A stretch of 32,000 nucleotides of DNA from Breznakia sp. PF5-3 (GTDB lineage: Bacteria > Bacillota_I > Bacilli_A > Erysipelotrichales > Erysipelotrichaceae), in contig NZ_JAQFIQ010000016.1 in assembly GCF_029504745.1 (NCBI RefSeq), positions 14,215 through 46,214 on the forward strand, read 5' to 3'. The notes under the pieces were generated by a model that worked only from the letters and a program-made list of their open reading frames with translations, had not been told where the DNA came from and searched no databases. Every line of letters begins with the position of its first letter. The first letter of the stretch is position 1. Positions 775-30,006 of the stretch are shown piece by piece. The translations under genes were made by a program, and so were the position numbers.

Positions 775-1512
775 CTATTTTGATAATGCATTTTTTAAGG
801 CTTTTACTTTATGGTAACTAACAATATCATAATCATTGTTGTTTAAAAATTGATAACTTACTAATTTCGTACTTGTTGTAGGATCTGTTTTATAAGCTTT
901 ACATGATGAATGAACCTGAGTGATTTGGGTATACTCTATCAGGGATTCTACATTGCGTTCATTGATCCCAGAACCCATTACAATTTCAATTTTATCACCG
1001 TATTTTCTTTGAATACTTTGTAGTACGGTTTTTCCATCCTCTGCATTTGCATGGGAACCACTAGTAAGAATGCGATCACATCCTAGTTTGATTAAACACT
1101 CTATGGCTCCATCAATATCTAAACAAATATCAATTGCACGATGGAAAACAGCTTCTTTTCCATAGGAATGAATGAGTTCAATCATTTTTTTAGTAGCAGG
1201 TTTATCAATCGTTTTATCTTCGTTTAGAAAACCAAAAGCTATACCATCAGCATGCTGATCTAATAACATTTTAGCGTCAAAAAACATTGTTTTTTGATCT
1301 TCGTGGTCGTAGCAGAAACCACCTGCTCGTGGACGAACCATGCAAATGGTTTTCACATTTGTATGTTCCTTGGTTTCAACAAGGGAACCAATGGAAGGTG
1401 TAAGTCCACCTAAAAACAGTGCACTATTAAGTTCAATTCGATCTGCACCAGCTTGGGCTGCATGAAATGCATCGTAAAAGCTACCACAACATACTTCTAA
1501 AAGGTTATTCAT
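775..1512 (-). CDS. cutC: CutC-family protein (copper homeostasis protein CutC, PF03932-type TIM barrel)
   Basis: LEVCCGSFYDAFHAAQAGADRIELNSALFLGGLTPSIG matches the CutC N-terminal signature. The likely start is the internal Met (MNNLLEV) at 1512, not the track start at 1542. It overlaps the upstream gene end (1505) by 8 nt. Confidence 0.8.
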   Translation of the reverse strand: MNNLLEVCCGSFYDAFHAAQAGADRIELNSALFLGGLTPSIGSLVETKEHTNVKTICMVRPRAGGFCYDHEDQKTMFFDAKMLLDQHADGIAFGFLNEDKTIDKPATKKMIELIHSYGKEAVFHRAIDICLDIDGAIECLIKLGCDRILTSGSHANAEDGKTVLQSIQRKYGDKIEIVMGSGINERNVESLIEYTQITQVHSSCKAYKTDPTTSTKLVSYQFLNNNDYDIVSYHKVKALKNALSK

Positions 1513-2026
1513 ATAGCATCCTCCCTTTTCCATCAATTGCAACAGTCACAGGAAAATCAACAACTTCTAAGCGTTGAATTGCTTCTGTTCCTAAATCTTC
1601 AAAAGCAATGACTTCTGCATGTTTAACACATTTTCCAAGCAAAGCTCCTGCGCCACCGATGGCAACCATATAAAGTGCATTATTTTTTATGATTGCATCT
1701 TGCACTGCTTTACTTCGATAACCTTTTCCAATTGTAACACTGACACCTAAATCATATAACTTTCCAGCATAAGTGTCCATTCGTGCACTTGTAGTTGGTC
1801 CTGCACTACCGAACGTTTTATTTGGTGGGGTTGGTGTAGGGCCAACATAGTATATCGTTGCATCTTTAAGATCAAAGGGTAATTCAATTCCTTGGTTAAT
1901 CATTTCAGTCAATCGTTTATGTGCAGCATCGCGAGCGGTATATATTGTACCTGTAATGTAAACCAAATCACCAACCTGTAATGTTTCACATAGTTTTTTG
2001 GTGATAGGTGTAGTAACTTTTATCAT
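1505..2026 (-). CDS. Fe-S hydro-lyase beta subunit, class I fumarate hydratase (tartrate/fumarate subfamily)
   Basis: 173 aa with YTARDAAHKR and GGAGALL motifs typical of the beta (C-terminal) region of class I fumarase/tartrate dehydratase. 4-nt overlap with the alpha subunit gene. Confidence 0.8.
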   Translation of the reverse strand: MIKVTTPITKKLCETLQVGDLVYITGTIYTARDAAHKRLTEMINQGIELPFDLKDATIYYVGPTPTPPNKTFGSAGPTTSARMDTYAGKLYDLGVSVTIGKGYRSKAVQDAIIKNNALYMVAIGGAGALLGKCVKHAEVIAFEDLGTEAIQRLEVVDFPVTVAIDGKGRMLYE

Positions 2027-2871
2027 TGGATGACCTCCTTAGCATGACGAGTAATGTGACAAGAAATATTTACAGCAACTGGTAATCCAGCAATATGTGT
2101 AGGAAAATATTCAATATTAATCGCCAATACCGTAGTATCTCCTTTAAATCCTTGAGGCCCAATATTTAACTTATTTGCCTCAGTTAATAAAGTTTTTTCT
2201 AATTGTGCATATTTAGGGTTTGGATTTGCCATAGTAGCATCACGTAGGGTTGCCTTTTTTGCTAATACAGCAGCATAATCAAAACTACCACCAATGCCGA
2301 CTCCTACCACCATTGGTGGACAAGCATTTGGTCCTGCCTGCTTTATTGCATTTAGTACTGTGTCTATAACACCTTGCTCTCCTTGAGCAGGTTTAAGCAT
2401 TTGTAACATTGACATGTTTTCACTACCAAATCCTTTTGTTCCAATTTCGATTTCTACTTGTTCACCATCAACTATTTCACTATATATGATACAAGGCGTA
2501 TTATCTTTGGTGTTGATTCTTTCATAAAGTGGATCATCAACAATTGATTTTCGTAAGTACCCTTGCTCATAACCTTGTCGAACACCCTCGTTTATAGCTT
2601 CATTTAAACTACCATCAATAAGTTGAACATTTTGTCCAATTTTTAAAAAGACGATAACCATTCCTGTGTCTTGGCAAACAGGAATATGTTCTTTTGCTGC
2701 AATATCAGCATTCTCTTGTAAGAGTTTTAATGTGGTTTTTCCTAAAGGGTTTCTTTCATTGTGAGTTGCTTCATCTAAGAGAAATCGGATATCTTTTGGA
2801 TAGTTAAAATTTATATCTTGTACCATTGTACAAACTTTATCACGAATGATATTTACACTGATTGGTTTCAT
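2023..2871 (-). CDS. Fe-S hydro-lyase alpha subunit, class I fumarate hydratase
   Basis: 282 aa with the PVCQDTGMV cluster-ligand motif and GVGIGGSFD. 4-nt overlaps on both sides. The adjacent malic enzyme favours fumarase over L-tartrate dehydratase, but the sequence alone does not settle this. Confidence 0.8.
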   Translation of the reverse strand: MKPISVNIIRDKVCTMVQDINFNYPKDIRFLLDEATHNERNPLGKTTLKLLQENADIAAKEHIPVCQDTGMVIVFLKIGQNVQLIDGSLNEAINEGVRQGYEQGYLRKSIVDDPLYERINTKDNTPCIIYSEIVDGEQVEIEIGTKGFGSENMSMLQMLKPAQGEQGVIDTVLNAIKQAGPNACPPMVVGVGIGGSFDYAAVLAKKATLRDATMANPNPKYAQLEKTLLTEANKLNIGPQGFKGDTTVLAINIEYFPTHIAGLPVAVNISCHITRHAKEVIQ

Positions 2872-5339: not shown

Positions 5340-5365
5340 GAAAAAAAAGGAGTTAATACTCCTTA
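5340..5365 (-). terminator. Intrinsic terminator after the PRD-regulator gene
   Basis: Arms AAGGAGT (5348-5354) and ACTCCTT (5359-5365) with loop TAAT. On the minus strand the stem is followed by T8. Confidence 0.65.
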
Positions 5366-7279
5366 AGGTTCTCTTACAAAGGATACGAGAAGTTCTATGA
5401 ATTCCTCATAGTCCCTAGCTGTTATGATACGTTTGATATTATCATTATCAGTTAGAATCATCGTCAATGTATCAAAGATTTCATTGAAAATATAACGTTC
5501 ATTTTTATTGAAAGCTAGCATCAAGACTAAATTTACAAGTTGTCCATCCCAATCAATTCCTTTATCGCTTATCATGATATTCATACTAGTTTTATTGGCA
5601 TTCATCTTTAATGCATGAGGAACTGCAAATGAATTAAAGGCGGTTGTAGCCATGCTTTCACGATCGCGAATCTCTTGTTCGAAACTTTCATCGACACAAT
5701 CTAGTTTCACCAGTTTTGAACACATATAGTGAATGGTTTCATCTTGGGTTTCTAAGGTTGAGTTTTTTTCAAACAAATCAGGCCAAGTTAATAAATGTAG
5801 ATGCTTTTTAAGCATTTGTTTTTTCTTTTCAATTTTGATTTCATCAATTTTATTGCGAATTGCATAAATGTCTTTATCATTTAATAAAAAGCTTACTGTA
5901 ATAGTTGGTATTGGCAATACAGAACTAATTGGAATTGTTGAAATAATCAAATCATAATTTGAAAGGTTTTCAAACTCTGTTTCGTCAGTGATAACGTTTT
6001 TCACAAGAATACTCGACGAAAAGTTTGTATTGATTGTGCTGATTAACTTTTTATTCATATCATAATAATTGGGACAATAAAGTACAGCATTGATTTTTGA
6101 ATGTAGTGCTTGTTGTGTTTCAAGAGCACTTCCAATATGAAATGCAATATAAGCAATTTCATCATCATTGATATACAATCCAGTTCGCTGTTCAATGCTG
6201 TGTGCCAAATTTAAAGCTGCATCATAAATAAGTGGACAAGATTGTTGAATCCCATTGGACAAAGGGTTTTTACTAGAATAATTATATTTGCTTCGCACTA
6301 AAAGGTTACGGATATGTAAAGCAAAACGTGTTAAAAATTCAGGTTCTGAAAGATTGATATAGTAATAAGAGTTTACTTCGTTTACTAACTCATTTACTAA
6401 TGTCATACATTCTTTTCCAACTAAATTTTCTAGATTTGCTTCTTTCACATTATTATAATCAGTCGCATTTGCATGAGAAATCAATAATAATGTAAGTTCA
6501 TATAATTCCCCTTCGTTGTATTCAATATCAAAATGTTTTTCTAAACGATCAACAACGTTTTTAGCTAATTCAAATTCATGAAGTTTCACCATTGGTTTTT
6601 CACCTTCACTGACAAAGCTTGTATAGTTATGTTTGATTCGGTCAATTGCTATAGTTATATGCAGCACAAGATTTGTCAGTGAATAGTCATTTACGAAGTA
6701 ATGGTATTCTTCGAAGGTTTCCATTACGACGTTTTTGATATATTCGATATCGATATCTGCGAAAGCACTTTGAACAGTTTTTAAATTTACAAAGTTTACG
6801 CTTGATTCATCATAAAGAATAGAACTCATTAGTTTACGCTTGTTCTTCTCAATTCCCTCTAAAGATAATTGATCATTATTATTAATAAGTTTTAAATCGA
6901 ACTTTGCAACTTTACGTTTTACTTTTTTAAGTTCATTTTTTAATGTTGACATGCTGATATATAGTTCATCACAAAGATCAAAAGCGTCAACAGAATCATT
7001 TTCTTTGACGAGACTATTAATAATGAAATCAACACGATCTTGAGAAGATTGTGGGAGGTTGTCTTTATTTTCATCTAATATTTTTCCAGCTTTTTCTAAA
7101 TCAATTCGATACCCTTCGCGTGAAGATATAATCGGATCTTGATAAAGTTGATTGATTTCAGAAATATAGTTTTTTACACTACGTGAAGAAACATCTAAAA
7201 TACTAGCTAAATTATTTGCTGTAACCCAACCACTACTATCCATGAGCGTTTTTACTAAAATTAAATATTTATCCTTCAT
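5363..7279 (-). CDS. PRD-domain transcriptional activator of the LicR/MtlR class (HTH - PRD1 - PRD2 - EIIB-like - EIIA-like)
   Basis: 638 aa. N-terminal wHTH (WVTANNLASILDVSSRSVKNYISEIN). PRD-type helices with conserved His (LVLHITIAIDRIKHN, FALHIRNLLVR, IAFHIGSALE). C-terminal EIIA(Mtl/Fru)-like segment FAVPHALK...LVLMLAF. Divergent from the PTS operon. Confidence 0.8.
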   Translation of the reverse strand: MKDKYLILVKTLMDSSGWVTANNLASILDVSSRSVKNYISEINQLYQDPIISSREGYRIDLEKAGKILDENKDNLPQSSQDRVDFIINSLVKENDSVDAFDLCDELYISMSTLKNELKKVKRKVAKFDLKLINNNDQLSLEGIEKNKRKLMSSILYDESSVNFVNLKTVQSAFADIDIEYIKNVVMETFEEYHYFVNDYSLTNLVLHITIAIDRIKHNYTSFVSEGEKPMVKLHEFELAKNVVDRLEKHFDIEYNEGELYELTLLLISHANATDYNNVKEANLENLVGKECMTLVNELVNEVNSYYYINLSEPEFLTRFALHIRNLLVRSKYNYSSKNPLSNGIQQSCPLIYDAALNLAHSIEQRTGLYINDDEIAYIAFHIGSALETQQALHSKINAVLYCPNYYDMNKKLISTINTNFSSSILVKNVITDETEFENLSNYDLIISTIPISSVLPIPTITVSFLLNDKDIYAIRNKIDEIKIEKKKQMLKKHLHLLTWPDLFEKNSTLETQDETIHYMCSKLVKLDCVDESFEQEIRDRESMATTAFNSFAVPHALKMNANKTSMNIMISDKGIDWDGQLVNLVLMLAFNKNERYIFNEIFDTLTMILTDNDNIKRIITARDYEEFIELLVSFVREP

Positions 7280-7346
7280 AATCCAACACCTTTATTGAGT
7301 AACTATCTTTATTATAACGTTCATTTGTTATTTTTCCTAACAATTA

Positions 7347-7394
7347 TTTTCACTATAAGAGTGAAAGTAATTGTTTTCACTTTGATGGTGAAAA
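7347..7394. promoter_or_regulatory. Two tandem palindromes TTTTCAC-N7-GTGAAA(G/A); candidate operator for the PRD activator
   Basis: TTTTCAC(7347-7353)-TATAAGA-GTGAAAG(7361-7367) and TTTTCAC(7374-7380)-TTTGATG-GTGAAAA(7388-7394). Spacing is 27 bp start to start. The array ends 7 bp upstream of a putative -35. Confidence 0.5.
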
Positions 7395-7401
7395 AGTGTA
7401 G

Positions 7402-7430
7402 TTGCGAGAAAAATTGAGTTGTTTGATAAT
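7402..7430 (+). promoter_or_regulatory. Putative sigma-A promoter of the PTS/GH1 operon
   Basis: TTGCGA (7402-7407), a 17-nt spacer, then GATAAT (7425-7430). SD AAAGGAGAA follows before ATG 7466. Confidence 0.45.
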
Positions 7431-7465
7431 GTTAGTAGAGAAACCGGTTTTAAAGGAGAATTAAT

Positions 7466-7780
7466 ATGAAAAAATTGAGTGTATTATTAGTGTGTGGTTC
7501 AGGAGCAAGTTCTGGATTTATGGCTGCTAACATGAGAAAGGCAGCTTCAAAACAAGGATTAGAAATTGATATTAAAGCAAGAAGTGAATCTGAGATCGAA
7601 AACTATATTGATGAAATTGATGCTTTGATGGTTGGACCTCATTTGGCTTATATTCTTGATGAAGTAGAAGATTATATTCACGATCACCCAGTAAAAGTAA
7701 TTTTGATGAGTGGAGAATATTACGCTACGTTAGATGGAGATAAAGCAATTACACATTTAATGGAGGAAATGAAAAAATAG
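7466..7780 (+). CDS. PTS lactose/cellobiose-family EIIB component
   Basis: 104 aa. LLVCGSGASSGFMA carries the phosphorylatable Cys in the usual position for EIIB(Cel/Lic). Confidence 0.85.
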   Translation: MKKLSVLLVCGSGASSGFMAANMRKAASKQGLEIDIKARSESEIENYIDEIDALMVGPHLAYILDEVEDYIHDHPVKVILMSGEYYATLDGDKAITHLMEEMKK

Positions 7781-7817
7781 ATTATTCAAGTTGAGAAAAT
7801 AAAAAAAGGAGAACAAA

Positions 7818-9077
7818 ATGCAAAAATTAATAGATTGGCTAGAAAATAGTTTCGCGCCAAAAATGAACAAGATTAACCATAATGTATGGGTAGTCACTTT
7901 AAAAGACTCTGTTATGCAGATTTTACCATTTATTTTATTGGGATCATTATTCTGTGTTGGAGCGGTTGTAGAGAATTATGTTGACCTTCCATTTTCATTC
8001 TGGACACCATTTGGGTGGACGATGGGAATGGTATCATTATTGGTAGCTTTCTTAATTCCATTCAACTTTTGTGAGAAAAAACGTTTAAGAAAACAAAGAT
8101 TAATCGCAGGATCAAGTGGAATTATTTTATTCTTAATTTCAATTACACCAGAAGTAGTTGCAGAAGGTGCACCAGGATTTGGATCTAGTGCATTGGGTGC
8201 AGGGGGAATGTTCTGTGCAATTGTAACAGGGATTTTAACTTGTATTGTATTTAACTTATTTGGAAAGTTTTCATTCTTTAAAGAAGATAGTGCGATTCCT
8301 GATTTTGTACGTCAATGGTTTGATTCTTTATTGCCAATATTTATTATTATTTTTGGTGGATTTATCTTAGTACAAGTAGCAGGTGTAAACTTATATGGAA
8401 TTGTAACTTCATTCTTCGAACCTTTAGGTGCGATGTGTAATACATGGTATGGATTTATTTTGATGAACTTCATCACGTGTTTCATTTACTCAATGGGTAT
8501 TTCAAGTTGGGTATTGACACCAGCAACAGAGCCAGTAAAATTGGCAAGTATTGCAGCAAACATTGCTATGGTTAGTGCAGGGACAGCAACCGTTGCTAAC
8601 TTGAATATGTATACTGAGACATTGGTTTATACATGTTATATGTGGATTGGTGGGATTGCATGTACGTTCCCATTAGTTCTGTTCTTGATGAGATCAAAAT
8701 CTAAAAAATTAAGTGCTTTAGGAAAAGCATGTTTAGGACCAGCAATCTTTAATATCAATGAACCAGTTGTATTTGGTTGTATTGCATGGAACCCTATTAT
8801 GATGTTACCAATGTGGATTATTGGTTTGGTAATCCCAGCGATTACTTGGATTGGATGTAAGGTAATTGCCTTTGCACCAATTCCTACAATTCAGTTTGAT
8901 TTGTGGTACTGTCCATATCCAATTTCTACATGGATTTCATCACAAGGATCGATTGCAGCGGTTATATTCGTTATTATAACGTTTGTTGTTGCAGCATTGA
9001 TTTGGTACCCATTCTTTAAAGCATATGAAAAACAATGTGTGGAAGAAGAGATGGCAGCTTTAGAACAAAAAAAATAA
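7818..9077 (+). CDS. PTS lactose/cellobiose-family EIIC permease
   Basis: 419 aa polytopic membrane protein. The N-terminus LENSFAPKMNKINHNVWVVTLKDSVMQILPFILLGSLF is typical of CelB/LicC-type EIIC. Confidence 0.85.
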   Translation: MQKLIDWLENSFAPKMNKINHNVWVVTLKDSVMQILPFILLGSLFCVGAVVENYVDLPFSFWTPFGWTMGMVSLLVAFLIPFNFCEKKRLRKQRLIAGSSGIILFLISITPEVVAEGAPGFGSSALGAGGMFCAIVTGILTCIVFNLFGKFSFFKEDSAIPDFVRQWFDSLLPIFIIIFGGFILVQVAGVNLYGIVTSFFEPLGAMCNTWYGFILMNFITCFIYSMGISSWVLTPATEPVKLASIAANIAMVSAGTATVANLNMYTETLVYTCYMWIGGIACTFPLVLFLMRSKSKKLSALGKACLGPAIFNINEPVVFGCIAWNPIMMLPMWIIGLVIPAITWIGCKVIAFAPIPTIQFDLWYCPYPISTWISSQGSIAAVIFVIITFVVAALIWYPFFKAYEKQCVEEEMAALEQKK

Positions 9078-9098
9078 AGAGAAGGAGCGTGACTTATT

Positions 9099-9437
9099 AT
9101 GATGAGTGAAACAGTAATGAACTCAGCGATGCAGATTATATTGCATGCTGGTGATGCAAGAGTATCATGTAAACAAGCACTAGATGCAATTGCCGCAGCT
9201 GATTTTAGTACAGCGGAAGAAAAAATGAAAGAAGCGCAAGACAAAATCACGCTAGCTCATAAAGTTCAAACAGACGCAATTCAGGAGGAAACACGGGGAG
9301 AAGAATCTGAATATTCTCTATTGTTTGCTCATGCTCAAGATACGCTAATGACAATTTATAGCGAAATCAATATAGCAAAGCAGTTACTGAAAATATTTAC
9401 AGTATATGACAAAAGAATTGCTGCTTTAGAAAAATAA
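9099..9437 (+). CDS. PTS lactose/cellobiose-family EIIA component
   Basis: 112 aa three-helix type with AGDAR, AHKVQT and LLFAHAQDTLMT motifs (HAQD histidine region). Confidence 0.85.
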   Translation: MMSETVMNSAMQIILHAGDARVSCKQALDAIAAADFSTAEEKMKEAQDKITLAHKVQTDAIQEETRGEESEYSLLFAHAQDTLMTIYSEINIAKQLLKIFTVYDKRIAALEK

Positions 9438-9442
9438 TTACT

Positions 9443-9473
9443 AAGGATTTCAGCAATGAAATCCTTTTATTAA
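9443..9473 (+). terminator. Intra-operon terminator-like hairpin between EIIA and the GH1 genes
   Basis: Perfect 9-bp arms AAGGATTTC (9443-9451) and GAAATCCTT (9458-9466) with loop AGCAAT, followed by TTATTAA. Only about 26 nt remain before the next start codon, leaving no room for a new promoter. Confidence 0.5.
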
Positions 9474-9492
9474 CTAAGTTATGGAGGTATAG

Positions 9493-13837
<4,345 letters not shown>

Positions 13838-13839
13838 GA

Positions 13840-14439
13840 ATGTCAAAGACGATAAAAACAATCCTTGGTTTGTTCGTTGCGATAAATTTGACTGGATTAG
13901 GTGTAGCATTGTTTGTTGGAGTAAATCTGGGATCGGATACCATTACGGTTTTGGTAGATGGTATTCATCAAACCTTTGATATGAGTTATGGAGCTGCATC
14001 GAGAGTTTATAATATTATCATGTTGATGATTGCACTAGCAGTAGCACGTAAAAGTATTGGATGGACGACCGTTGTTTATGCATTAAGCGTAGGTTTTTCC
14101 ATGGATTTCTTTAACGAGGTGTTATCTATATTTGCAATGAATGACTTTTCATTAATTGCGAAAGTATTATGTATTATATTAGGTCAATTATGTTTTGGTA
14201 TGGCCTATGCATTGTTAATTATCTTTCGTAAAGGAATGAATCAAGCGGATGCGATATCCTATTATATTGCGGATAAAATACATACAAAATATGTTTATGT
14301 AAGAACTACCATGGATATCATGATGATTGTTGTCGGATATCTATTGGGAGGTATTGTAGGTATTGGTTCTATTATTGCAATGTGTACAACAGGGATATTT
14401 GTAAATATGTTTTTAAAAATTATGCATTATGAGCAGTAG
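13840..14439 (+). CDS. YczE/YyaS/YitT-like small polytopic membrane protein, copy 1
   Basis: 199 aa with about 5-6 TM segments. GLFVAINLTGLGVALFV..LGSDTITV is the N-terminal pattern I associate with the YczE/YitT group. It starts 2 nt after the GH1-3 stop with no clear SD, suggesting coupled translation. Confidence 0.55.
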   Translation: MSKTIKTILGLFVAINLTGLGVALFVGVNLGSDTITVLVDGIHQTFDMSYGAASRVYNIIMLMIALAVARKSIGWTTVVYALSVGFSMDFFNEVLSIFAMNDFSLIAKVLCIILGQLCFGMAYALLIIFRKGMNQADAISYYIADKIHTKYVYVRTTMDIMMIVVGYLLGGIVGIGSIIAMCTTGIFVNMFLKIMHYEQ

Positions 14440-14460
14440 TTAAGACTACTGCTTTTTATA
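14433..14460 (+). terminator. Intrinsic terminator between the two YczE-like genes
   Basis: Arms GCAGTAG (14433-14439, includes the stop codon) and CTACTGC (14446-14452) with loop TTAAGA, followed by TTTTTAT. Confidence 0.6.
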
Positions 14461-14471
14461 TGTTTTAAACA

Positions 14472-14480
14472 TGCTATAAT
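14472..14480 (+). promoter_or_regulatory. Extended -10 element (TGCTATAAT) for YczE-like copy 2
   Basis: Perfect TGnTATAAT 26 nt upstream of ATG 14506, followed by the SD AGGGGGAG. Confidence 0.5.
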
Positions 14481-14505
14481 AGCAATGTTGATTTAGGGGG
14501 AGTAT

Positions 14506-15105
14506 ATGAAAAATAAATTTATAAGAACAATACTTGGTTTATTTGTAGCCGTTAATTTAGCAGGTTTTGGTGCAGCTATCATGGTTCAAAGTGGTTTGGG
14601 TAGTGATCCGATTACCGTTTTTATTGATGGTTTACATCATACATTAGGAATCTCACTTGGCTGGGGGTCAAGAATGTATAGTGTTATAACATTGCTAATC
14701 GCTTTTATGATTGCTCGTAAAGATATAGGGTGGACGACAATTGTATTTACATTGAGTGTGGGCTTTACAATTGATTTCTATGATATTCTTTTGAAAAATT
14801 TTCCTATTGCAGATGTTGCATTTGGTTATCGTCTTCTATGCGTGTGTTTAGGCCAGGTGTGTTTGGGTGTTGCCTATGCGATACTGATTCTTTTCCGTAA
14901 TGGAATGAATCAATTGGAAGCGATATCCTATTATGTCAGTGATAAGCTAAATACTAAATTTGTTTATGTGAGAACAACTTTTGATGTCATCTTTTTAATA
15001 ATTGGAAAATTGCTTGGAGGTATAGTAGGTATAGGGTCTATCATTGCAATGTGTACAACCGGCTTTATTGTGAATATGATTTTAAAAATTATGCATTACG
15101 AATAA
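14506..15105 (+). CDS. YczE/YyaS/YitT-like small polytopic membrane protein, copy 2
   Basis: 199 aa, colinear with copy 1 over its full length. The last ~30 residues are almost identical (LLGGIVGIGSIIAMCTTG..VNM.LKIMHYE). Confidence 0.55.
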   Translation: MKNKFIRTILGLFVAVNLAGFGAAIMVQSGLGSDPITVFIDGLHHTLGISLGWGSRMYSVITLLIAFMIARKDIGWTTIVFTLSVGFTIDFYDILLKNFPIADVAFGYRLLCVCLGQVCLGVAYAILILFRNGMNQLEAISYYVSDKLNTKFVYVRTTFDVIFLIIGKLLGGIVGIGSIIAMCTTGFIVNMILKIMHYE

Positions 15106-15142
15106 AAATAACAATAATTGAATATATTGTTATTTTTATTTT
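15105..15142 (+). terminator. Intrinsic terminator ending the PTS/GH1/YczE locus
   Basis: Perfect 12-bp AT-rich arms AAAATAACAATA (15105-15116) and TATTGTTATTTT (15125-15136), followed by TATTTT. Confidence 0.55.
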
Positions 15143-17705: not shown

Positions 17706-18050
17706 ATGACGAATCAACGAATTGAACATTCTATGAAAATTTTATTGTTGGCAGGAGATGCTAGAGCAAAGTGCATGGAAGCACTAAGTGCAATTTCAAA
17801 TCAAGAAATTGATTACGCAAAAAAACTATTAAATGAGGCACAGGAAATTATAACAAATGCTCATAAAGTACAAACAGAAATTATACAAGAAGAAATATGT
17901 AAAGAATACAATGAGTATTCACTTTTATTTTCGCACGCACAAGATACATTGATGACAATTTGTAGTGAGATTAATATTGCGAAACAATTGATAAAGATAT
18001 TCACACAATATAATCAACGCTTGTGTGAGTTAGAAAAAGTACATATATAA
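17706..18050 (+). CDS. Orphan PTS lactose/cellobiose-family EIIA paralogue
   Basis: 114 aa, colinear with the EIIA at 9099..9437 (AGDARAKC, NAHKVQTEIIQEE, LLFSHAQDTLMTICSEINIAKQLIKIF). No EIIB or EIIC is adjacent. SD AAGGAGGGG. Confidence 0.85.
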   Translation: MTNQRIEHSMKILLLAGDARAKCMEALSAISNQEIDYAKKLLNEAQEIITNAHKVQTEIIQEEICKEYNEYSLLFSHAQDTLMTICSEINIAKQLIKIFTQYNQRLCELEKVHI

Positions 18051-18220: not shown

Positions 18221-18643
18221 ATGGAAGAACAATTTAGAAGACAACTGTTTTTACTTGAAAACCAATTGGATGATACATATAGATTATTGAGAAGTAGCCA
18301 ACAAAAGATTGAAGATATAGAACAATTTATGATGTATTATCAAAGCAAAAGGGTTCATATTCTGCAAGGAATAGATCAAAAGCGAATAAAGCTTTCAAAT
18401 TACTATGATATATTTGAAAATGGAATAGCAACAAGAAACTATTCTGCATATATGCAGAATTTTTTGTGTGGTCAAAAAGGAGCTATAATCAACTTGGAAA
18501 GTGATAAAGCAGAAGATGAAATGAGACGAAAAAAAGCCCAATTACAAAATCAATTCTTGGATATAGAATGCAATATAAGATCATTGAATAACCAGTATGA
18601 AACAGTACAATGGGATTTAAGAAGGTATTTATCCGATAAATAA
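18221..18643 (+). CDS. Small coiled-coil protein, YwqH/DUF5082-like (T7SS toxin partner-like), first gene of the hydrolase operon
   Basis: 140 aa, heptad-rich and Pro-free, with two long helical stretches split by a central Gly-containing segment (ENGIATRNY...CGQKGA). Very strong SD AGGAGGGGGG. The layout resembles small helical partners encoded with LXG/T7SSb toxins. The family assignment is from memory only. Confidence 0.45.
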   Translation: MEEQFRRQLFLLENQLDDTYRLLRSSQQKIEDIEQFMMYYQSKRVHILQGIDQKRIKLSNYYDIFENGIATRNYSAYMQNFLCGQKGAIINLESDKAEDEMRRKKAQLQNQFLDIECNIRSLNNQYETVQWDLRRYLSDK

Positions 18644-18684
18644 AAGGATAAAAGATATTTAGTAAAGAGATAGGAGAAATAAGG

Positions 18685-19017
18685 ATGGATGAATTAAAAA
18701 TAAAAGATAATGATTTTAATCAAGTAGAAGATTATATAAATCAATTTATGAATGAACTAAAGGAGATATCGAAGCTGTATTTTGATAACATACATGTTAT
18801 TTATGAGTATGGATTACAAGATAGCGCTATGCAAGAAGTTATTTATGATAAGATTTACGCTCTTGTATATTTCACTTCAAGAGAGATTCAATCGGAAGTG
18901 GGGATGGAGAAAGATTATCATCCATTGCAAAAAGCAGTAAATGAATATAGTTTTACGCATAATGAATTGAATGCGTTTGTTTCAGAAATTGATGAAATTG
19001 ATTCAATATTATATTAG
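18685..19017 (+). CDS. Small helical protein (helix-turn-helix hairpin size), candidate T7SS targeting partner
   Basis: 110 aa, acidic, no signal peptide, with a central turn around EYGLQDSAMQ. SD TAGGAGAAA. Confidence 0.4.
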   Translation: MDELKIKDNDFNQVEDYINQFMNELKEISKLYFDNIHVIYEYGLQDSAMQEVIYDKIYALVYFTSREIQSEVGMEKDYHPLQKAVNEYSFTHNELNAFVSEIDEIDSILY

Positions 19018-19028
19018 GGAGAAAGAAT

Positions 19029-19322
19029 ATGGGAAAGACATTAATAATAAAACCAATCATATGTATGGACGCTTTACTTAAAATGAGAAAAGCAGCGGAA
19101 CAGATATTAAAAATGTATGAACATGATCTTGATGATTTATTAGCAAATAGTACAGGGAAATCAGTTGAGGAATTGAAAGTGATGGTTATGGAAATGCATG
19201 GATTGAAAACAGAACTGTATGATTTAATGAAAGAATTATCAGATGAAATTGATAGTTATTTGAAAGAACATATTGAGTTAGATGAAAAAACAGCATTGAA
19301 AATAAGAACCCAAAGGGAGTGA
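19029..19322 (+). CDS. Small helical protein of WXG100-like size, candidate T7SS targeting partner
   Basis: 97 aa with two predicted helices around a central NSTGKSVEEL turn and no signal peptide. Begins 11 nt after the previous gene; SD GGGAGAAAG. Confidence 0.4.
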   Translation: MGKTLIIKPIICMDALLKMRKAAEQILKMYEHDLDDLLANSTGKSVEELKVMVMEMHGLKTELYDLMKELSDEIDSYLKEHIELDEKTALKIRTQRE

Positions 19323-19324
19323 AT

Positions 19325-20086
19325 ATGAAAAAGCGGATAGTAATAGTCATATTAAATGTTTTCATTCTTAGTGGATGTAGATATATGAATGAAGATAGAA
19401 GCTTTACCAAAGAAGAAATAGAAGAGTCAATTTTGACGTATATGGAAGATAAATATGGAGAAAAGTTTACGATAGAAAATATTGGGTATAGTGCACCATT
19501 GGGGAATGCTGTAGAAGCATTTGTTATTTCAGAGGAAGATGAGCGAAAAAATGAAATACAAGTGAATTGGCGATATGAAGATGGGAAAGAATTAATAGAT
19601 GATAATTATACACATCTACTTTATAAAAAAGAAGCAAATGAGTTGATGGATCCATTAATTGAAGATGGGTTTAAAGAGTTTGAGTACGCAGCGTATAGTA
19701 GAATCAGTGATGATGTTCCGATTGAAAAATATGATAAGAATATATCTTTTAAAAAGATAGCGAAAACTAAGAAGGTTGGTATAGAAGTTGTTATTTTACT
19801 AAATGAGAATACAGTGGGTGAAGAAGAGAAAATTAAAGAAAAGATTCTTCAATTATATGAAGATACAAAGGATAAGACTACAGATGAAGTGCATTTTAAT
19901 ATAACTGTTTATGTTTGTGGGAATAATAATTTTTATGAGAATCAACCACTTATGCAACAGTTTAAAGAATTATATTCTTTGGATATAGGTGAAATTCCTT
20001 TCACTTTTTATGGGGCTGAGAAAGATGTAATTATTGAGTTTTTATTTAGTTCTAACGATATAGAGGAAGGGGTAGAGGAATTATGA
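19325..20086 (+). CDS. Lipoprotein, candidate immunity protein for the downstream hydrolase
   Basis: MKKRIVIVILNVFILSGC is a signal peptide with the lipobox L-S-G-C. The mature part is acidic and soluble. I prefer ATG 19325 (5 nt after GGGAG) over the track's GTG at 19319. Its stop overlaps the hydrolase start (ATGA at 20083-20086). Confidence 0.6.
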   Translation: MKKRIVIVILNVFILSGCRYMNEDRSFTKEEIEESILTYMEDKYGEKFTIENIGYSAPLGNAVEAFVISEEDERKNEIQVNWRYEDGKELIDDNYTHLLYKKEANELMDPLIEDGFKEFEYAAYSRISDDVPIEKYDKNISFKKIAKTKKVGIEVVILLNENTVGEEEKIKEKILQLYEDTKDKTTDEVHFNITVYVCGNNNFYENQPLMQQFKELYSLDIGEIPFTFYGAEKDVIIEFLFSSNDIEEGVEEL

Positions 20087-21630
20087 GTATTGAAGAAGTA
20101 CTATTGATATTGAATGCTTTGGTTTATTCAAATGGAGTCAATGAAAAAAGCATGGAAAAAAATGTATATGATTTAGTTGAAGATGGATTATTAAAACCAG
20201 ACGATGCAATTGCAACTAAAGAAGAATGGAATGCTTTGATTCGTACGATAAAACAAAATGAAACTTATTTCTCTAAAGTTAAATTGGTAGATATTGAAAG
20301 TAAAAAAGAAGCACAGAAGAATGTTACGTTTATAAATGAAAATGTTAATGCAGATAGAAAACAAGAAGTATATGTAGTTTTCAAAGGAACAGGATCATTA
20401 GAATGGCATGATAATGCGAAAGGTGCTTTGTTGATGGTACCACTTACTCCACAACAACAAAATGCTTTGAATTATGCAAATAGAATAGCTAAAGATTATA
20501 GTCAATATGATTTTATAGTCAGTGGTCATTCTAAGGGTGGAAATAAAGCACAAGTGGTTACACTTTTATGTGATAAAGTAAAAGCAGGATATTCTTTTGA
20601 TGGACAAGGAATGGGAAAAGGGTTCATGATTAAATATCGATTACAAATAGAACAAAACCAACATAAACTTGTTTCTATTTCAAATCGAAGTGATTTTGTG
20701 AATTCATTATTTAAGTCAGTAGCAGGAAAGGTGAAGTTTACGAATAATACTGGAAACTTGTTGGATTGGCTTATGAGTGGGGATAAGGATATAGCGATGC
20801 ATCAACATTCTCCATTGGCAATGTTTGAGATAAAGGATGGATATTTGCGAATGTTTGATACAAAAGGGATAAAGCAGGATTCAACTTCTTTATTTTTAGG
20901 GAATATGGTGGATTATTTTCGTGAGCATATGAGTGAAGATGATTTTGAAACGTTTGCAAATCTAGTGATGCATATGTTTGAGACTGGAGGATGTGGAGAT
21001 AAGCATTTTGATATTAAAAACATAGATCCAGAGTTTTGGGTACGATTAATAAATCATATATTGAAGTATGGAGAAGAATTAGGGATGAAGGAAAACGATA
21101 TGCTATTATTGTTGAGTAATCTATCAATCTTTATACCAGATGATAGTGTATGGGGTTATGTATTAGAAGCAATTAAGTTATTCAGAAATCCAGGAGGGAT
21201 TTTAGCAGATGCGATTATTGCAGATGAAACACCAAGACGGTTGAATGAAATAATGGTTGAGTATAATAGCAAATATAGTGAAGTGATGAAAAAGAAAGAA
21301 ATAATTCGAGATTTTAGTAGTGAAGCACAGGAAGCGATGCGAGATAGTTTGGCATGTGAAATAGATCGTTCGCAATTATCAATGGAATCAACACCAGGGT
21401 GGGGATATGTAGCAGAAATCTTATCGGATACAGGAGTGTTGGAAAGTCATCACAAAGTAGAGGAGTTATGCAATGAGTTATTGGACACATGTGAGGTAAC
21501 AGAAGCAAAGTATAATAAAATTATAGAAGAAGTATATGCGAAGGATCATGAGTTTGCACAGAGATTGAAGAAGAAAACAGATAGGATAAGAGATTATCGA
21601 GCAGTTATAAGAAAAGCGAGAAATAAATAA
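20083..21630 (+). CDS. Alpha/beta-hydrolase (lipase-like, DUF2974/Mbeg1-like GHSKGG type) with long C-terminal helical domain; candidate reverse-architecture T7SS lipase toxin
   Basis: 515 aa with no signal peptide or TM segment. N-terminal half: VVFKGTGSLEWHDN ... QQQNALNYA ... FIVSGHSKGGNKAQ (nucleophile elbow G-H-S-K-G, Ser150, codon 20530-20532) ... YSFDGQG. Residues ~270-515 are helix-rich and charged. Confidence 0.55.
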   Translation: MSIEEVLLILNALVYSNGVNEKSMEKNVYDLVEDGLLKPDDAIATKEEWNALIRTIKQNETYFSKVKLVDIESKKEAQKNVTFINENVNADRKQEVYVVFKGTGSLEWHDNAKGALLMVPLTPQQQNALNYANRIAKDYSQYDFIVSGHSKGGNKAQVVTLLCDKVKAGYSFDGQGMGKGFMIKYRLQIEQNQHKLVSISNRSDFVNSLFKSVAGKVKFTNNTGNLLDWLMSGDKDIAMHQHSPLAMFEIKDGYLRMFDTKGIKQDSTSLFLGNMVDYFREHMSEDDFETFANLVMHMFETGGCGDKHFDIKNIDPEFWVRLINHILKYGEELGMKENDMLLLLSNLSIFIPDDSVWGYVLEAIKLFRNPGGILADAIIADETPRRLNEIMVEYNSKYSEVMKKKEIIRDFSSEAQEAMRDSLACEIDRSQLSMESTPGWGYVAEILSDTGVLESHHKVEELCNELLDTCEVTEAKYNKIIEEVYAKDHEFAQRLKKKTDRIRDYRAVIRKARNK

Positions 21631-28152: not shown

Positions 28153-28950
28153 ATGGATATGATAAAGTTGGTTTTATGTGACATGGATGGAACGCTTTTA
28201 CATGATGATAAAAGTTTGCCAAAAGATATCTATGAGATATATCGTAAGTTATTGGATAAGAATGTGTACTGTGGAATTGCAACTGGGAGATCTTTGTTAT
28301 CAATACAAAGAGACTTTGCATCATTAAAAGATGAATTGATTTTTATAATTGAGAATGGTGCAGCAGCATATTATAAGGGAGAGGTTCTTTATCGGACAAT
28401 AATGGATAAAAAATTTATTCATAAGGTGATTGATGAAAGTCAAAAAATAAATGATATTCAATTAATTTTGGCTGGTGAAACACAAACGTATTGTGAAGCA
28501 TGTAGTGAGGAAGAATTAGAATTGTTTAAGATTTATTATCCAAAGATTCAAGTTGTAGAATCACTTTATGATGTGGATGCTGATATTATGAAGATGACGG
28601 TTTTTAATAAGCGTAATCAAGCAGAAGAAAATTATCCTTTTTTCTTACAATTTAAAGAGCAGGCGAATATTATTACATCAGGAAAAGAATGGATTGATAT
28701 CTCTGTGTTAGGTGCAAATAAAGGAAAAGGAGTAAAGGTAATTCAAGAGAAGTTTCATTTAAAAAAGGAAGAATGTATGGCTTTTGGTGATTATATGAAT
28801 GATTATGAAATGATGCTAAATGTAGGAGCATCATATGCGATGGGAAATGGACATCCTAAAATCAAAGAAATAAGCAAACATATAATTGGTACTAATGAAG
28901 AAGAAGCAGTACTTCAAACATTGCGAAAAGAATTCAAACTAGAAGATTAA
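28153..28950 (+). CDS. Cof-type HAD-IIB family sugar-phosphate phosphatase
   Basis: 265 aa. Motif I LCDMDGTLL, motif II ATGRS and motif IV FGDYMNDYEM, with the Cof/YidA-type cap length. Confidence 0.8.
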   Translation: MDMIKLVLCDMDGTLLHDDKSLPKDIYEIYRKLLDKNVYCGIATGRSLLSIQRDFASLKDELIFIIENGAAAYYKGEVLYRTIMDKKFIHKVIDESQKINDIQLILAGETQTYCEACSEEELELFKIYYPKIQVVESLYDVDADIMKMTVFNKRNQAEENYPFFLQFKEQANIITSGKEWIDISVLGANKGKGVKVIQEKFHLKKEECMAFGDYMNDYEMMLNVGASYAMGNGHPKIKEISKHIIGTNEEEAVLQTLRKEFKLED

Positions 28951-29043: not shown

Positions 29044-30006
29044 ATGGAAATGATTAAATTGAAACCAGCATACAAAGATTATCTGTGGGGTGGAACCAAA
29101 TTAAAAGATATTTATGGTATGAAAACAGATTTAGATATTGTTGCTGAAGCGTGGGAGTTAAGTGCTCATCCAGATGGTCCAGCTACAGTTGAAAACGGAT
29201 CTTATGCTGGTAAACTATTTACAGAATATCTACAAGGTATGGGAAAAGCTGTTTGGGGTAAAAATGCACAACATTTTGAACAATTTCCTATTTTGATTAA
29301 GTTTATTGATGCAAAGCAAGCATTATCAATTCAAGTACATCCAGATGATGAGTACGCACTTCGTGTTGAACATGAATATGGAAAAAATGAAATGTGGTAT
29401 ATTGTTGATTGTGAGCCAGGATCATTTTTATATTATGGAGTAAATCAAAATTTGACGAAAGAAGAATTTAGAGCTCATATTGAGAATGACACAATATTGG
29501 ATGTACTTAATAAAGTGGAAGTAAAAAAAGGAGATTGTTTCTTTATTAAATCGGGGACAATTCATGCGATTGGAGCAGGATGTTTGATTTGTGAAATCCA
29601 ACAAAACTCTAACTCTACGTATCGTGTTTATGATTTTGATCGTGTTGGTGTAGATGGAAAACCTCGTGAGTTGCATATCCAAAAAGCAGTAGATGTAAGC
29701 CAATTAACACCGAGTGCAAAAAATGGTGAACCAGAAGGTAAAAAAGAAAGCTTTGATGGTTACAGTGATACTTTGCTTGCTGCAAGTGAATATTTTACAA
29801 CTAATGAATATGAAGTTGAAAAAGAAGTAGCACTTCGTGCAGATGAAACAAGTTTTCAATCGATTATTATCCTACATGGAGAAGGTAAAGTTGTATCTGA
29901 AAAACAAACACTTGATTTTAAAATGGGTGATAGTATCTTTGTTCCTGCAGGATTTGGTGATTTCAAGGTGATTGGTAAATGTAGTTTTATCAAGACGAAT
30001 CTATAG
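29044..30006 (+). CDS. manA: Mannose-6-phosphate isomerase, class I (Firmicute type)
   Basis: 320 aa. KPAYKDYLWGGTKL, LSIQVHPDD, NEMWYI and GTIHAIGAG motifs (cupin metal ligands). Confidence 0.85.
   Translation: MEMIKLKPAYKDYLWGGTKLKDIYGMKTDLDIVAEAWELSAHPDGPATVENGSYAGKLFTEYLQGMGKAVWGKNAQHFEQFPILIKFIDAKQALSIQVHPDDEYALRVEHEYGKNEMWYIVDCEPGSFLYYGVNQNLTKEEFRAHIENDTILDVLNKVEVKKGDCFFIKSGTIHAIGAGCLICEIQQNSNSTYRVYDFDRVGVDGKPRELHIQKAVDVSQLTPSAKNGEPEGKKESFDGYSDTLLAASEYFTTNEYEVEKEVALRADETSFQSIIILHGEGKVVSEKQTLDFKMGDSIFVPAGFGDFKVIGKCSFIKTNL

Follow-up and report, generated by a model that had tools for sequence, protein, structure and literature searches.

The window analyzed here is a 32,000-nt stretch of Breznakia sp. 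PF5-3 DNA (GCF_029504745.1, contig NZ_JAQFIQ010000016.1, forward strand 14,215-46,214), and its positions 5363-15105, numbered from the window start, hold a member of a recurrent Erysipelotrichaceae operon family built on the known PRD-activator-controlled beta-glucoside operon with a phosphotransferase system (PTS) of the Lac/Cel family. The operon carries three glycoside hydrolase family 1 (GH1) genes whose products have Gln in place of the catalytic acid/base Glu (hereafter Gln-type, as opposed to Glu-type), together with two genes for small YczE-like (DUF6198) membrane proteins. Recurrence across dozens of independent contigs puts the gene combination far beyond chance. We propose, giving the idea about an even chance, that the locus is an inducible PTS operon for beta-glucosides, in which GH1 enzymes devoid of a catalytic acid favor aglycones that leave by themselves and a YczE-like protein removes the aglycone or product.

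An initial annotation, made from the sequence alone, had counted ten genes in the locus, but only nine were found; the remaining open reading frames (ORFs) of at least 60 aa are merely antisense overlaps. Its description of the contents was otherwise accurate: Pfam, NCBIfam, and alignments located the activator, a single Lac/Cel-type EIIB/EIIC/EIIA set, and three Gln-variant GH1 genes where it had placed them, followed by two small polytopic membrane proteins, the first separated from the last GH1 gene by a 2-nt gap (GH1c stop 13837, start 13840). The genes are as follows.

5363-7279, minus strand: PRD activator, LicR/MtlR type (Pfam HTH_11, Mga, two PRD, C-terminal EIIA_2)
7466-7780, plus strand: PTS EIIB, Lac/Cel family (PF02302, 55.8 bits)
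7818-9077, plus strand: PTS EIIC, Lac/Cel family, diverged subfamily (PF02378)
9099-9437, plus strand: PTS EIIA, Lac/Cel family (PF02255, 101 bits)
9493-10926, plus strand: GH1a, Gln-type GH1, "a" ortholog group (PF00232)
10938-12389, plus strand: GH1b, Gln-type GH1, "b" ortholog group (PF00232)
12395-13837, plus strand: GH1c, Gln-type GH1, "c" ortholog group (PF00232)
13840-14439, plus strand: YczE-like (DUF6198) membrane protein 1, 199 aa (weak NCBIfam YczE match, precomputed PF19700)
14506-15105, plus strand: YczE-like (DUF6198) membrane protein 2, 199 aa (same basis as copy 1)

The PF00232 matches scored 386-395 bits (E about 1e-115 to 1e-118). The three GH1 proteins are 53-62% identical to each other, and the two YczE-like copies are 60% identical. 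Genes flanking the locus are unrelated to it: malic enzyme, fumarase, and VanZ genes lie upstream and an NAD(P)HX repair gene downstream.

The operon family and its transport system

One genome per GTDB species was scanned, yielding 80 loci with 116 GH1 genes. Maps of these loci revealed a canonical module of regulator, EIIB, EIIC, EIIA, and Gln-type GH1 genes, the regulator being either divergent upstream or located downstream. The homologous PTS triad was present in 39 of the 52 Gln-type loci but in only 2 of the 28 Glu-only loci (Fisher p = 3e-9), and regulator homologs flank 36/52 Gln-type loci. The cluster of EIIC orthologs (48 members) co-occurs with Gln-type GH1. Glu-type genes from the same scan pair instead with BglP-type EIIBCA and BglG antiterminators. 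Ten loci nevertheless hold a Glu-type GH1 as well, mostly directly beside the Gln-type gene, which suggests a division of labor between the two. Among the fetched loci, designated by L numbers, the two types lie beside or one gene from each other in one PTS operon in L029-L032, L040, L042, L046, and L067; such pairs were found in Lachnospiraceae, Clostridiaceae, Erysipelotrichaceae, and Enterococcus.

The window EIIB, EIIC, and EIIA are separate PF02302, PF02378, and PF02255 proteins, as is characteristic of the Lac/Cel family (TC 4.A.3). EIIC reached 155 bits, against cut-offs of 434 (cellobiose), 614 (lactose), and 760 (chitobiose) for the substrate equivalogs and 236 for TIGR00410; EIIB and EIIA likewise fell below the substrate-specific NCBIfam cut-offs. 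The sole PDB relative of EIIC was Bacillus cereus ChbC (3QNQ, E = 4e-26). The regulator follows the LicR/MtlR plan, with an N-terminal HTH/Mga region (HTH_11 and Mga), two PRD domains matched in two stretches, and a C-terminal EIIA(Mtl/Fru)-like domain (PTS_EIIA_2 at residues 501-631), and it scored 143 bits with the NCBIfam AcpB/EbpR/MafR model (cut-off 130). No Pfam match covered residues ~390-500, where an EIIB(Gat)-like domain would sit between PRD2 and EIIA.

The three GH1 genes each have orthologs in other Erysipelotrichaceae operons. Identity to these orthologs is 79-81% for GH1a ("a" genes in L085, L090, and L098) and 83-87% for GH1b ("b" genes in L085, L087, L090, and L098). For GH1c, compared with the leading GH1 of each Erysipelotrichaceae operon examined, it is 74-80%; "c" is almost always present and first in these operons. 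A fourth paralog type, "d" (NQVN...), occurs in relatives but not in the window. The usual gene order is c, [a, b], YczE, d, whereas that of the window is a, b, c, YczE, YczE. In gut Erysipelotrichaceae, such operons normally contain two to four GH1 genes with YczE-like genes interleaved, and the core module is widespread in three phyla; the architecture is thus not unusual in the sense of rare, as the initial annotation had considered it. Its suggestion that several related substrates enter through one permease fits the finding that the a, b, and c paralogs are ortholog groups conserved across genera. Its treatment of the locus as one functional unit, and its suspicion that the membrane proteins belong to that unit, gain strong support.

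The Gln-type GH1 enzymes

The GH1 proteins were aligned with the solved 6-phospho-beta-glucosidases 6WGD, 8YSV, and LpPbg1 (3QOM); identity in alignments with solved enzymes of this kind is about one half. Residue numbers (83, 191, 198, 273, 333-335, 436, etc.) are those of GH1b. The acid/base Glu, found in an N-E-I-N motif in the solved relatives, is Gln (N-Q-I-N) in GH1a, GH1b, and GH1c, and all three have Thr (T83) for the Arg of the FYHRY motif, an Arg that in GH1 enzymes contacts the nucleophile. The nucleophile motif E-N-G is kept (ISENG, IAENG, and ITENG across the three). The nucleophile E382 and the glycone residues H145, N190, Y323, and W429 are invariant across Gln-type and Glu-type enzymes, as are S436, K444, and Y446 of the 6-phosphate pocket. 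Because the phosphate pocket, glycone residues, and nucleophile are all retained, the three enzymes most likely bind and cleave 6-phospho-beta-glucosides. The phosphate-site Lys (Lys438 in LpPbg1) and the catalytic Glu residues have been defined previously (PMC3605045). All three proteins scored below the cut-offs of every NCBIfam 6-phospho-beta-glucosidase model (best scores 541, 546, and 513 bits; cut-offs 623-639).

The substitution is not peculiar to the window. Gln occupies the acid/base position in 120/120 of the best database homologs of GH1b, down to 63% identity, with Holdemania, Breznakia, Bacillus haynesii, Enterococcus, Vallitalea, Clostridium, and Pelolinea among the named sources. 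In a neighbor-joining tree of the 109 full-length GH1 sequences of the genome scan, all 55 Gln-type sequences formed a single pure clade, with a mean identity of 56% inside the clade and 46% to Glu-type sequences. A pure clade in which Gln has been kept at 56% mean identity implies that this residue has been under long-term selection. The positions separating the two types are Q191, T83 (replacing Arg or His of the F-Y-H-R-Y motif), L88, and L194; in addition, most Gln-type sequences have a three-residue gap at 333-335, where Glu-type enzymes have residues. The coupled Glu-to-Gln and Arg-to-Thr change, maintained across such divergence, points to a catalytic center that is altered yet functional. 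The clade spans Bacillota, Actinomycetota, and Chloroflexota, and it nests among bacterial 6-phospho-beta-glucosidases. The best PDB matches were all bacterial 6-phospho enzymes, and no clade member was present among the close PDB matches. NCBI labels the clade proteins only as "glycoside hydrolase family 1 protein".

Listeria monocytogenes is included in the clade, with a Gln-type GH1 on at least 1000 contigs (motifs KYWIVINQIN, FYHTY, and IIAENG; P0217/P0218). The gene is part of a locus with the order EIIB-EIIC-EIIA-GH1-regulator, after which comes an ABC ATPase gene (L033, L034). The Listeria enzyme is presumably lmo0917, within the PTS locus lmo0914-0918 (or -0919). Expression of lmo0915 is reported to be induced in vivo in infected mice, and that of lmo0917 in soil extract (PMC2679221, PMC3179493).

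Loss of the acid/base residue could also mean that Gln-type GH1 proteins are not hydrolases at all, but rather transglycosidases or phosphorylases using an anionic acceptor, or dead sensor or binding proteins. Engineered thioglycoligases are obtained by removing this carboxylate, a change that lessens the repulsion of anionic acceptors. However, the Gln-type GH1 is the sole glycosidase of the PTS operon in most loci and must therefore yield a metabolizable product, and the nucleophile and whole -1 subsite are invariant; we regard a non-hydrolytic role as highly improbable.

The YczE-like membrane proteins

A profile of the YczE-like subfamily was used to scan metagenomes, returning 35 loci. 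In 33 of these, the YczE-like gene abuts a GH1 gene, nearly always of the Gln type; the other two lie on contigs too short (1.1 and 1.6 kb) for a judgement. Context look-ups of six homologs placed five of them inside regulator/EIIB/EIIC/EIIA/Gln-type GH1 operons; these five are the proteins of Holdemanella biformis and Faecalicoccus pleomorphus, at 55-57% identity, and three others at 54%, 45%, and 37-41%. Upstream of the sixth are genes for a Glu-type GH1, a BglP-type PTS, and a BglG antiterminator. A tandem YczE-like pair similar to that of the window is present in L117. Start/stop overlaps of YczE-like genes with flanking GH1 genes are frequent in homologous operons, and these overlaps, together with the 2-nt gap in the window, suggest that the two genes are translationally coupled.

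The initial annotation had left room for random association of the YczE-like genes, and the co-occurrence analysis refutes it. Small membrane-protein genes are admittedly common, but adjacency in essentially every informative locus of the subfamily leaves the coincidental explanation with practically negligible probability. The link is a property of this subfamily and not of DUF6198 as a whole, because relatives at 31% and 26% identity occur in unrelated contexts with no GH1 link. These two more distant DUF6198 genes provide possible leads to further substrates of the family: one (L123, 7001-7642) is divergent from a MetNIQ-type (methionine) ABC transporter, and the other (L125, 7001-7603) has genes for a nucleoside (Bmp) ABC transporter, a purine nucleoside phosphorylase, and a GntR regulator upstream of it.

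Searching from the GH1 side, a DUF6198 gene was found within the operon in 8/80 loci, from Lactiplantibacillus, Enterococcus, Paenibacillus, Pelagirhabdus, Lachnospiraceae, and Clostridiaceae; these copies share only 18-26% identity with the window protein. The preference for Gln-type over Glu-type loci in this genome set was not significant (7/52 vs. 1/28, p = 0.25). The YczE slot can also be filled by other small membrane proteins, namely EamA/DMT proteins in L002 (11553-12428) and L005 (11422-12300) and an Imp-YgjV protein in L087 (10124-10660). The recurrence of unrelated membrane proteins in the same slot hints at a need for some small permease.

With respect to the proteins themselves, the best match was NCBIfam YczE (NF052291), at 77 and 79 bits, well short of the equivalog cut-off of 205. 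Precomputed Pfam assignments gave PF19700 (PF19700.6)/DUF6198 for the window protein and all 95 matches, consistent with membership of the YczE-YyaS-YitT superfamily. Another copy of Pfam-A gave no PF19700 match for either protein and only a weak PF02588 match (E = 0.01-0.07), a discrepancy that looks like a difference in library version. A PDB sequence search with the YczE-like protein found no relative. An AlphaFold2 model built from 46 sequences (pLDDT 90, pTM 0.84) contains six transmembrane helices and two short helices, arranged as two repeats of a transmembrane helix, a short helix, and two transmembrane helices. The conserved polar motifs G-S-D and G-M-N-Q-x-D precede the short helices, and Arg155 and Asp159 are also conserved. 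The modeled architecture is as would be expected for a small secondary transporter or channel. We know of no member of the YczE/YitT family with a demonstrated function. The sole bioinformatic study of YczE gave its function as unknown but suggested metabolite transport (PMC4944035).

A different role for the YczE-like protein would be that of a relief valve, in which a sugar-phosphate phosphatase acts when phospho-glycosides build up and the membrane protein expels the dephosphorylated glycoside (inducer expulsion). Genes for Cof-type HAD phosphatases (PF08282) do lie directly 3' of GH1/YczE genes in L001, L009, L084, L085, and L124, and the SgrS/YigL sugar-phosphate stress response of Escherichia coli is analogous. 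A HAD homolog in the same BLAST cluster as the L001 and L009 genes is also encoded in the window (28153-28950, plus strand), 13 kb downstream, and might cooperate functionally with the operon from a distance. Nonetheless, no HAD gene is within or adjoins the window operon, and the linkage is sporadic, with a HAD gene next to GH1 in 4/81, 1/7, and 2/34 of three locus sets (E < 1e-10). An obligatory partnership with the Cof-type phosphatase is thereby ruled out, and we consider the relief-valve role improbable. The window HAD gene is followed by a mannose-6-phosphate isomerase gene (29044-30006, plus strand).

The proposed pathway and related systems

Regulatory signals predicted from the window DNA are as follows.

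7348-7366, unstranded: operator-like palindrome 1, TTTCAC-N7-GTGAAA (conserved motif upstream of homologous operons)
7375-7393, unstranded: operator-like palindrome 2, TTTCAC-N7-GTGAAA, 27 bp after palindrome 1 (motif scan, sequence reading)
7402-7430, plus strand: promoter-like site TTGCGA-17 nt-GATAAT, just 3' of both palindromes (consensus match alone)
9443-9466, plus strand: hairpin then UUUUAUU, between EIIA and GH1a (-12 kcal/mol, z = -2.3)
14431-14454, plus strand: terminator-like hairpin and U-run, overlapping the YczE-like 1 stop (-13.5 kcal/mol, z = -3.8)
14472-14480, plus strand: putative extended -10, TGcTATAAT (read from sequence)
14496-14502, plus strand: strong ribosome-binding site GGGGGAG before YczE-like 2 (read from sequence)
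15100-15141, plus strand: AT-rich terminator-like hairpin closing the locus (-13.5 kcal/mol, z = -5.2)

The degenerate pattern T[TC][GT]CAC-N7-GTG[CAT]A[AG] occurred merely 26 times in 2.07 Mb (the fetched loci plus the window). Nineteen of these occurrences, by measurement, precede the EIIB start of a homologous operon in Bacillota or Collinsella by 13-141 bp, and four more (L081-L083 and L087) are ~130 bp upstream of EIIB by called-gene coordinates. The palindrome, with the conserved consensus TTKCAC-N7-GTGMAA, is thus nearly restricted to sites upstream of these operons. It is a good candidate for the operator of the PRD activators, and it resembles operators of MtlR/LicR-type regulators. 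The position of the promoter-like site fits an activator-dependent promoter. The hairpin between EIIA and GH1a could be a partial terminator, an attenuator, or an RNA-processing site, separating expression of the transporter from that of the hydrolases. YczE-like 2 is probably a separate transcription unit with its own promoter because its gene is preceded by a terminator-like hairpin, an extended -10, and a ribosome-binding site. An Rfam scan of the whole window matched no family, including any riboswitch or ribonucleic antiterminator (RAT) element.

In the pathway we propose, the divergently encoded PRD/EIIA activator would probably bind both palindromes just upstream of the -35, thereby driving EIIB, EIIC, EIIA, GH1a, GH1b, GH1c, and YczE-like 1 as a single unit, with the second YczE-like copy probably expressed from its own promoter. 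The Lac/Cel-type EIICBA would import the glycoside and phosphorylate it at O6, and the GH1 paralogs would most likely cleave the resulting 6-phospho-beta-glucosides. Because the enzymes have no general acid/base (Gln191, with the coupled Thr83), the best aglycones should be those leaving without protonation, i.e., those of thio-, aryl-, enol-, or acyl-glucosides, by analogy with plant myrosinases; each of the conserved a, b, and c groups would have its own range of aglycones. The YczE-like protein would be a small six-helix transporter dedicated to the pathway, most likely exporting the aglycone or an unmetabolized product. That the aglycones are toxic or reactive, and the membrane protein their exporter, is speculative.

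Several observations weigh against this scheme. Outside the Erysipelotrichaceae-focused searches, a YczE-like gene was present in just 7/52 Gln-type loci, which makes it accessory. Glu-type GH1 genes, too, have YczE-like companions in L075 and L086, and one is flanked by YczE-like genes in L104. Foldseek found no match for the YczE-like model in the PDB (best E = 0.46, TM below 0.3), leaving both ECF S-component and MFS-like folds unsupported. The clade occurs not only in gut bacteria but also in those of marine sediment and soil (Pelolinea, Vallitalea, and Neobacillus), and a plant-specific substrate such as a glucosinolate of the Brassicaceae therefore cannot explain all members. Finally, both positions 198 and 273 are Glu in 168/240 Gln-type sequences, and E198/E273 could be a relocated acid.

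One alternative is that the locus is an ordinary PTS operon for cellobiose or beta-glucan oligosaccharides. The loss of the acid/base Glu would then be offset by another carboxylate, the enzymes would be normal disaccharide enzymes, and the YczE-like protein would handle free sugar, e.g., released glucose. The presence of the core operon in many habitats, marine sediment included, suggests a ubiquitous substrate. Positions 198 and 273, predicted to line the aglycone site, are both Glu in GH1b and GH1c, and position 273 aligns with the aglycone-binding Arg267 of LpPbg1; in GH1a, the candidate is E199. An acidic residue at 198, 199, or 273 is present in 201/240 Gln-type sequences, and the YczE gene of Oenococcus has been speculated to encode a fructose or mannitol permease (PMC5131533). 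However, the remaining 39 enzymes, including the conserved "d" paralog (motif NQVNLxPxVQF), lack an acidic residue at all three positions, ruling out a relocated acid/base as a general explanation, although it may apply to GH1b and GH1c. Furthermore, Gln191 is invariant at 56% mean identity and coupled to loss of a conserved Arg, which argues for a changed mechanism and not for drift, and the Glu-type genes beside Gln-type ones in ten loci suggest that the two types are not redundant. Overall, we consider the ordinary disaccharide operon a rather unlikely alternative.

It is also conceivable that the YczE-like protein imports rather than exports, supplying a small-molecule general base that replaces the lost carboxylate, as ascorbate does in plant myrosinase, or providing auxiliary glycoside uptake. 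The myrosinase precedent is well established for GH1, and the tight, apparently translational coupling of YczE-like to Gln-type GH1 genes would suit such a role. The 45/52 Gln-type operons outside Erysipelotrichaceae that do without a YczE-like gene indicate that the enzymes do not generally need one, and its company with Glu-type GH1 in L075 and L086 likewise argues against import, which we find distinctly improbable.

Returning to the proposed export pathway, the enzymes share with the GH1 6-phospho-beta-glucosidases (E. coli BglA/AscB, Lactiplantibacillus plantarum Pbg1 3QOM, Streptococcus mutans Bgl 4F66, and 6WGD) their fold, length, ENG nucleophile, phosphate Ser/Lys/Tyr, glycone residues, and PTS operon, but they differ in the acid/base Gln and the FYHRY Arg-to-Thr change throughout a monophyletic clade. 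Plant myrosinases (e.g., that of Sinapis alba) are likewise GH1 enzymes with Gln for the acid/base Glu and the Glu nucleophile kept, and they cleave glucosides whose aglycone needs no protonation. They are, however, secreted enzymes of eukaryotes whose substrates are non-phosphorylated glucosinolates and whose cofactor is ascorbate, whereas the enzymes here are cytoplasmic and PTS-coupled and have a 6-phosphate pocket. Common descent with the plant myrosinase branch is not supported: the clade nests with bacterial 6-phospho-beta-glucosidases, and Gln arose independently within that branch.

As a whole, the locus resembles the LicR/CelR Lac/Cel PTS operons (Bacillus subtilis licRBCAH and S. mutans cel) in its PRD activator with a C-terminal EIIA, its separate EIIB/EIIC/EIIA (TC 4.A.3), its phospho-glycosidase, and its upstream palindrome. 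It differs in having three Gln-type GH1, where licH is a GH4 enzyme and the S. mutans enzyme a Glu-type GH1, and in the added DUF6198 proteins. The small polytopic membrane proteins belong to the superfamily of B. subtilis YczE and YitT (COG2364, DUF161, DUF6198) and are without the C-terminal DUF2179, but their GH1/PTS operon context is unlike that of YczE proper, which is found with MocR-type regulators or lipopeptide clusters (PMC4944035). The sinigrin system of Companilactobacillus farciminis (the PttS PTS and PbgS; PMC8660893) parallels the proposed pathway in that a plant glucoside with an activated aglycone is taken up and phosphorylated by a PTS and cleaved by a cytoplasmic GH1. PttS is, however, a fused EIIABC of the Glc family, not of Lac/Cel, and neither a Gln variant nor a membrane partner was reported there (PMC8660893).

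A PTS coupled to a 6-phospho-beta-glucosidase has been proposed as the route of glucosinolate breakdown in Gram-positive bacteria, and sinigrin is degraded by L. monocytogenes and Enterococcus casseliflavus (PMC8660893, PMC6767122). According to the same sources, E. casseliflavus CP1, L. agilis R16, and E. coli VL8 were scored as without myrosinase activity, and such activity could not be demonstrated in cell-free extracts of L. agilis R16. This literature fits our proposal but proves nothing for the present clade. A literature search for the bacterial Gln-type GH1 clade, a DUF6198 function, or this system, with a J Agric Food Chem 2022 paper on an L. plantarum "myrosinase-like GH1" outside its coverage, found no paper on any of these. 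The acid/base-less GH1 clade and its dedicated DUF6198 partner appear to be undescribed features.

The clade is of interest as a large, monophyletic, and evidently selected bacterial group of GH1 enzymes without a general acid/base, a trait so far tied to plant myrosinases. Its carriers include abundant human gut bacteria (Holdemanella, Faecalicoccus, Holdemania relatives, and Collinsella), enterococci, and L. monocytogenes, and it provides candidate genes for the conversion of dietary plant glucosides, including glucosinolates, by Gram-positive gut bacteria. One DUF6198/YczE subfamily gains a strong, testable functional context, and a conserved operator motif is predicted for the associated PRD activators. 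It is possible, but in our judgement unlikely, that Gln-type GH1, the Lac/Cel PTS and, in Erysipelotrichaceae, DUF6198 form a "phospho-myrosinase-like" system, importing glucosides whose aglycones leave by themselves and are often toxic (glucosinolates and other thio-, aryl-, or acyl-glucosides), cleaving them without an acid, and exporting the aglycone. If true, such a system would account for the long-known "myrosinase-like" activity of Gram-positive bacteria from gut and food (Listeria, Enterococcus, and lactobacilli), which according to reviews could not be recovered in cell-free extracts of some strains, and it would give the DUF6198/YczE family its first function.

Two minor observations concern other parts of the window. 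Fumarate hydratase alpha and beta genes (1505-2871, minus strand) lie ~2.5 kb upstream of the operon on the opposite strand; such genes are likewise near a Gln-type GH1 operon in two Lacrimispora loci (L015/L016, 12507-13958, just downstream), a proximity that is probably coincidental. An orphan Lac/Cel-type EIIA gene (17706-18050, plus strand; PF02255, 95 bits) has no adjoining EIIB or EIIC and is followed 3' by three ORFs without a Pfam match (18221-20086) and then by a gene for an Mbeg1-like protein (20083-21630).

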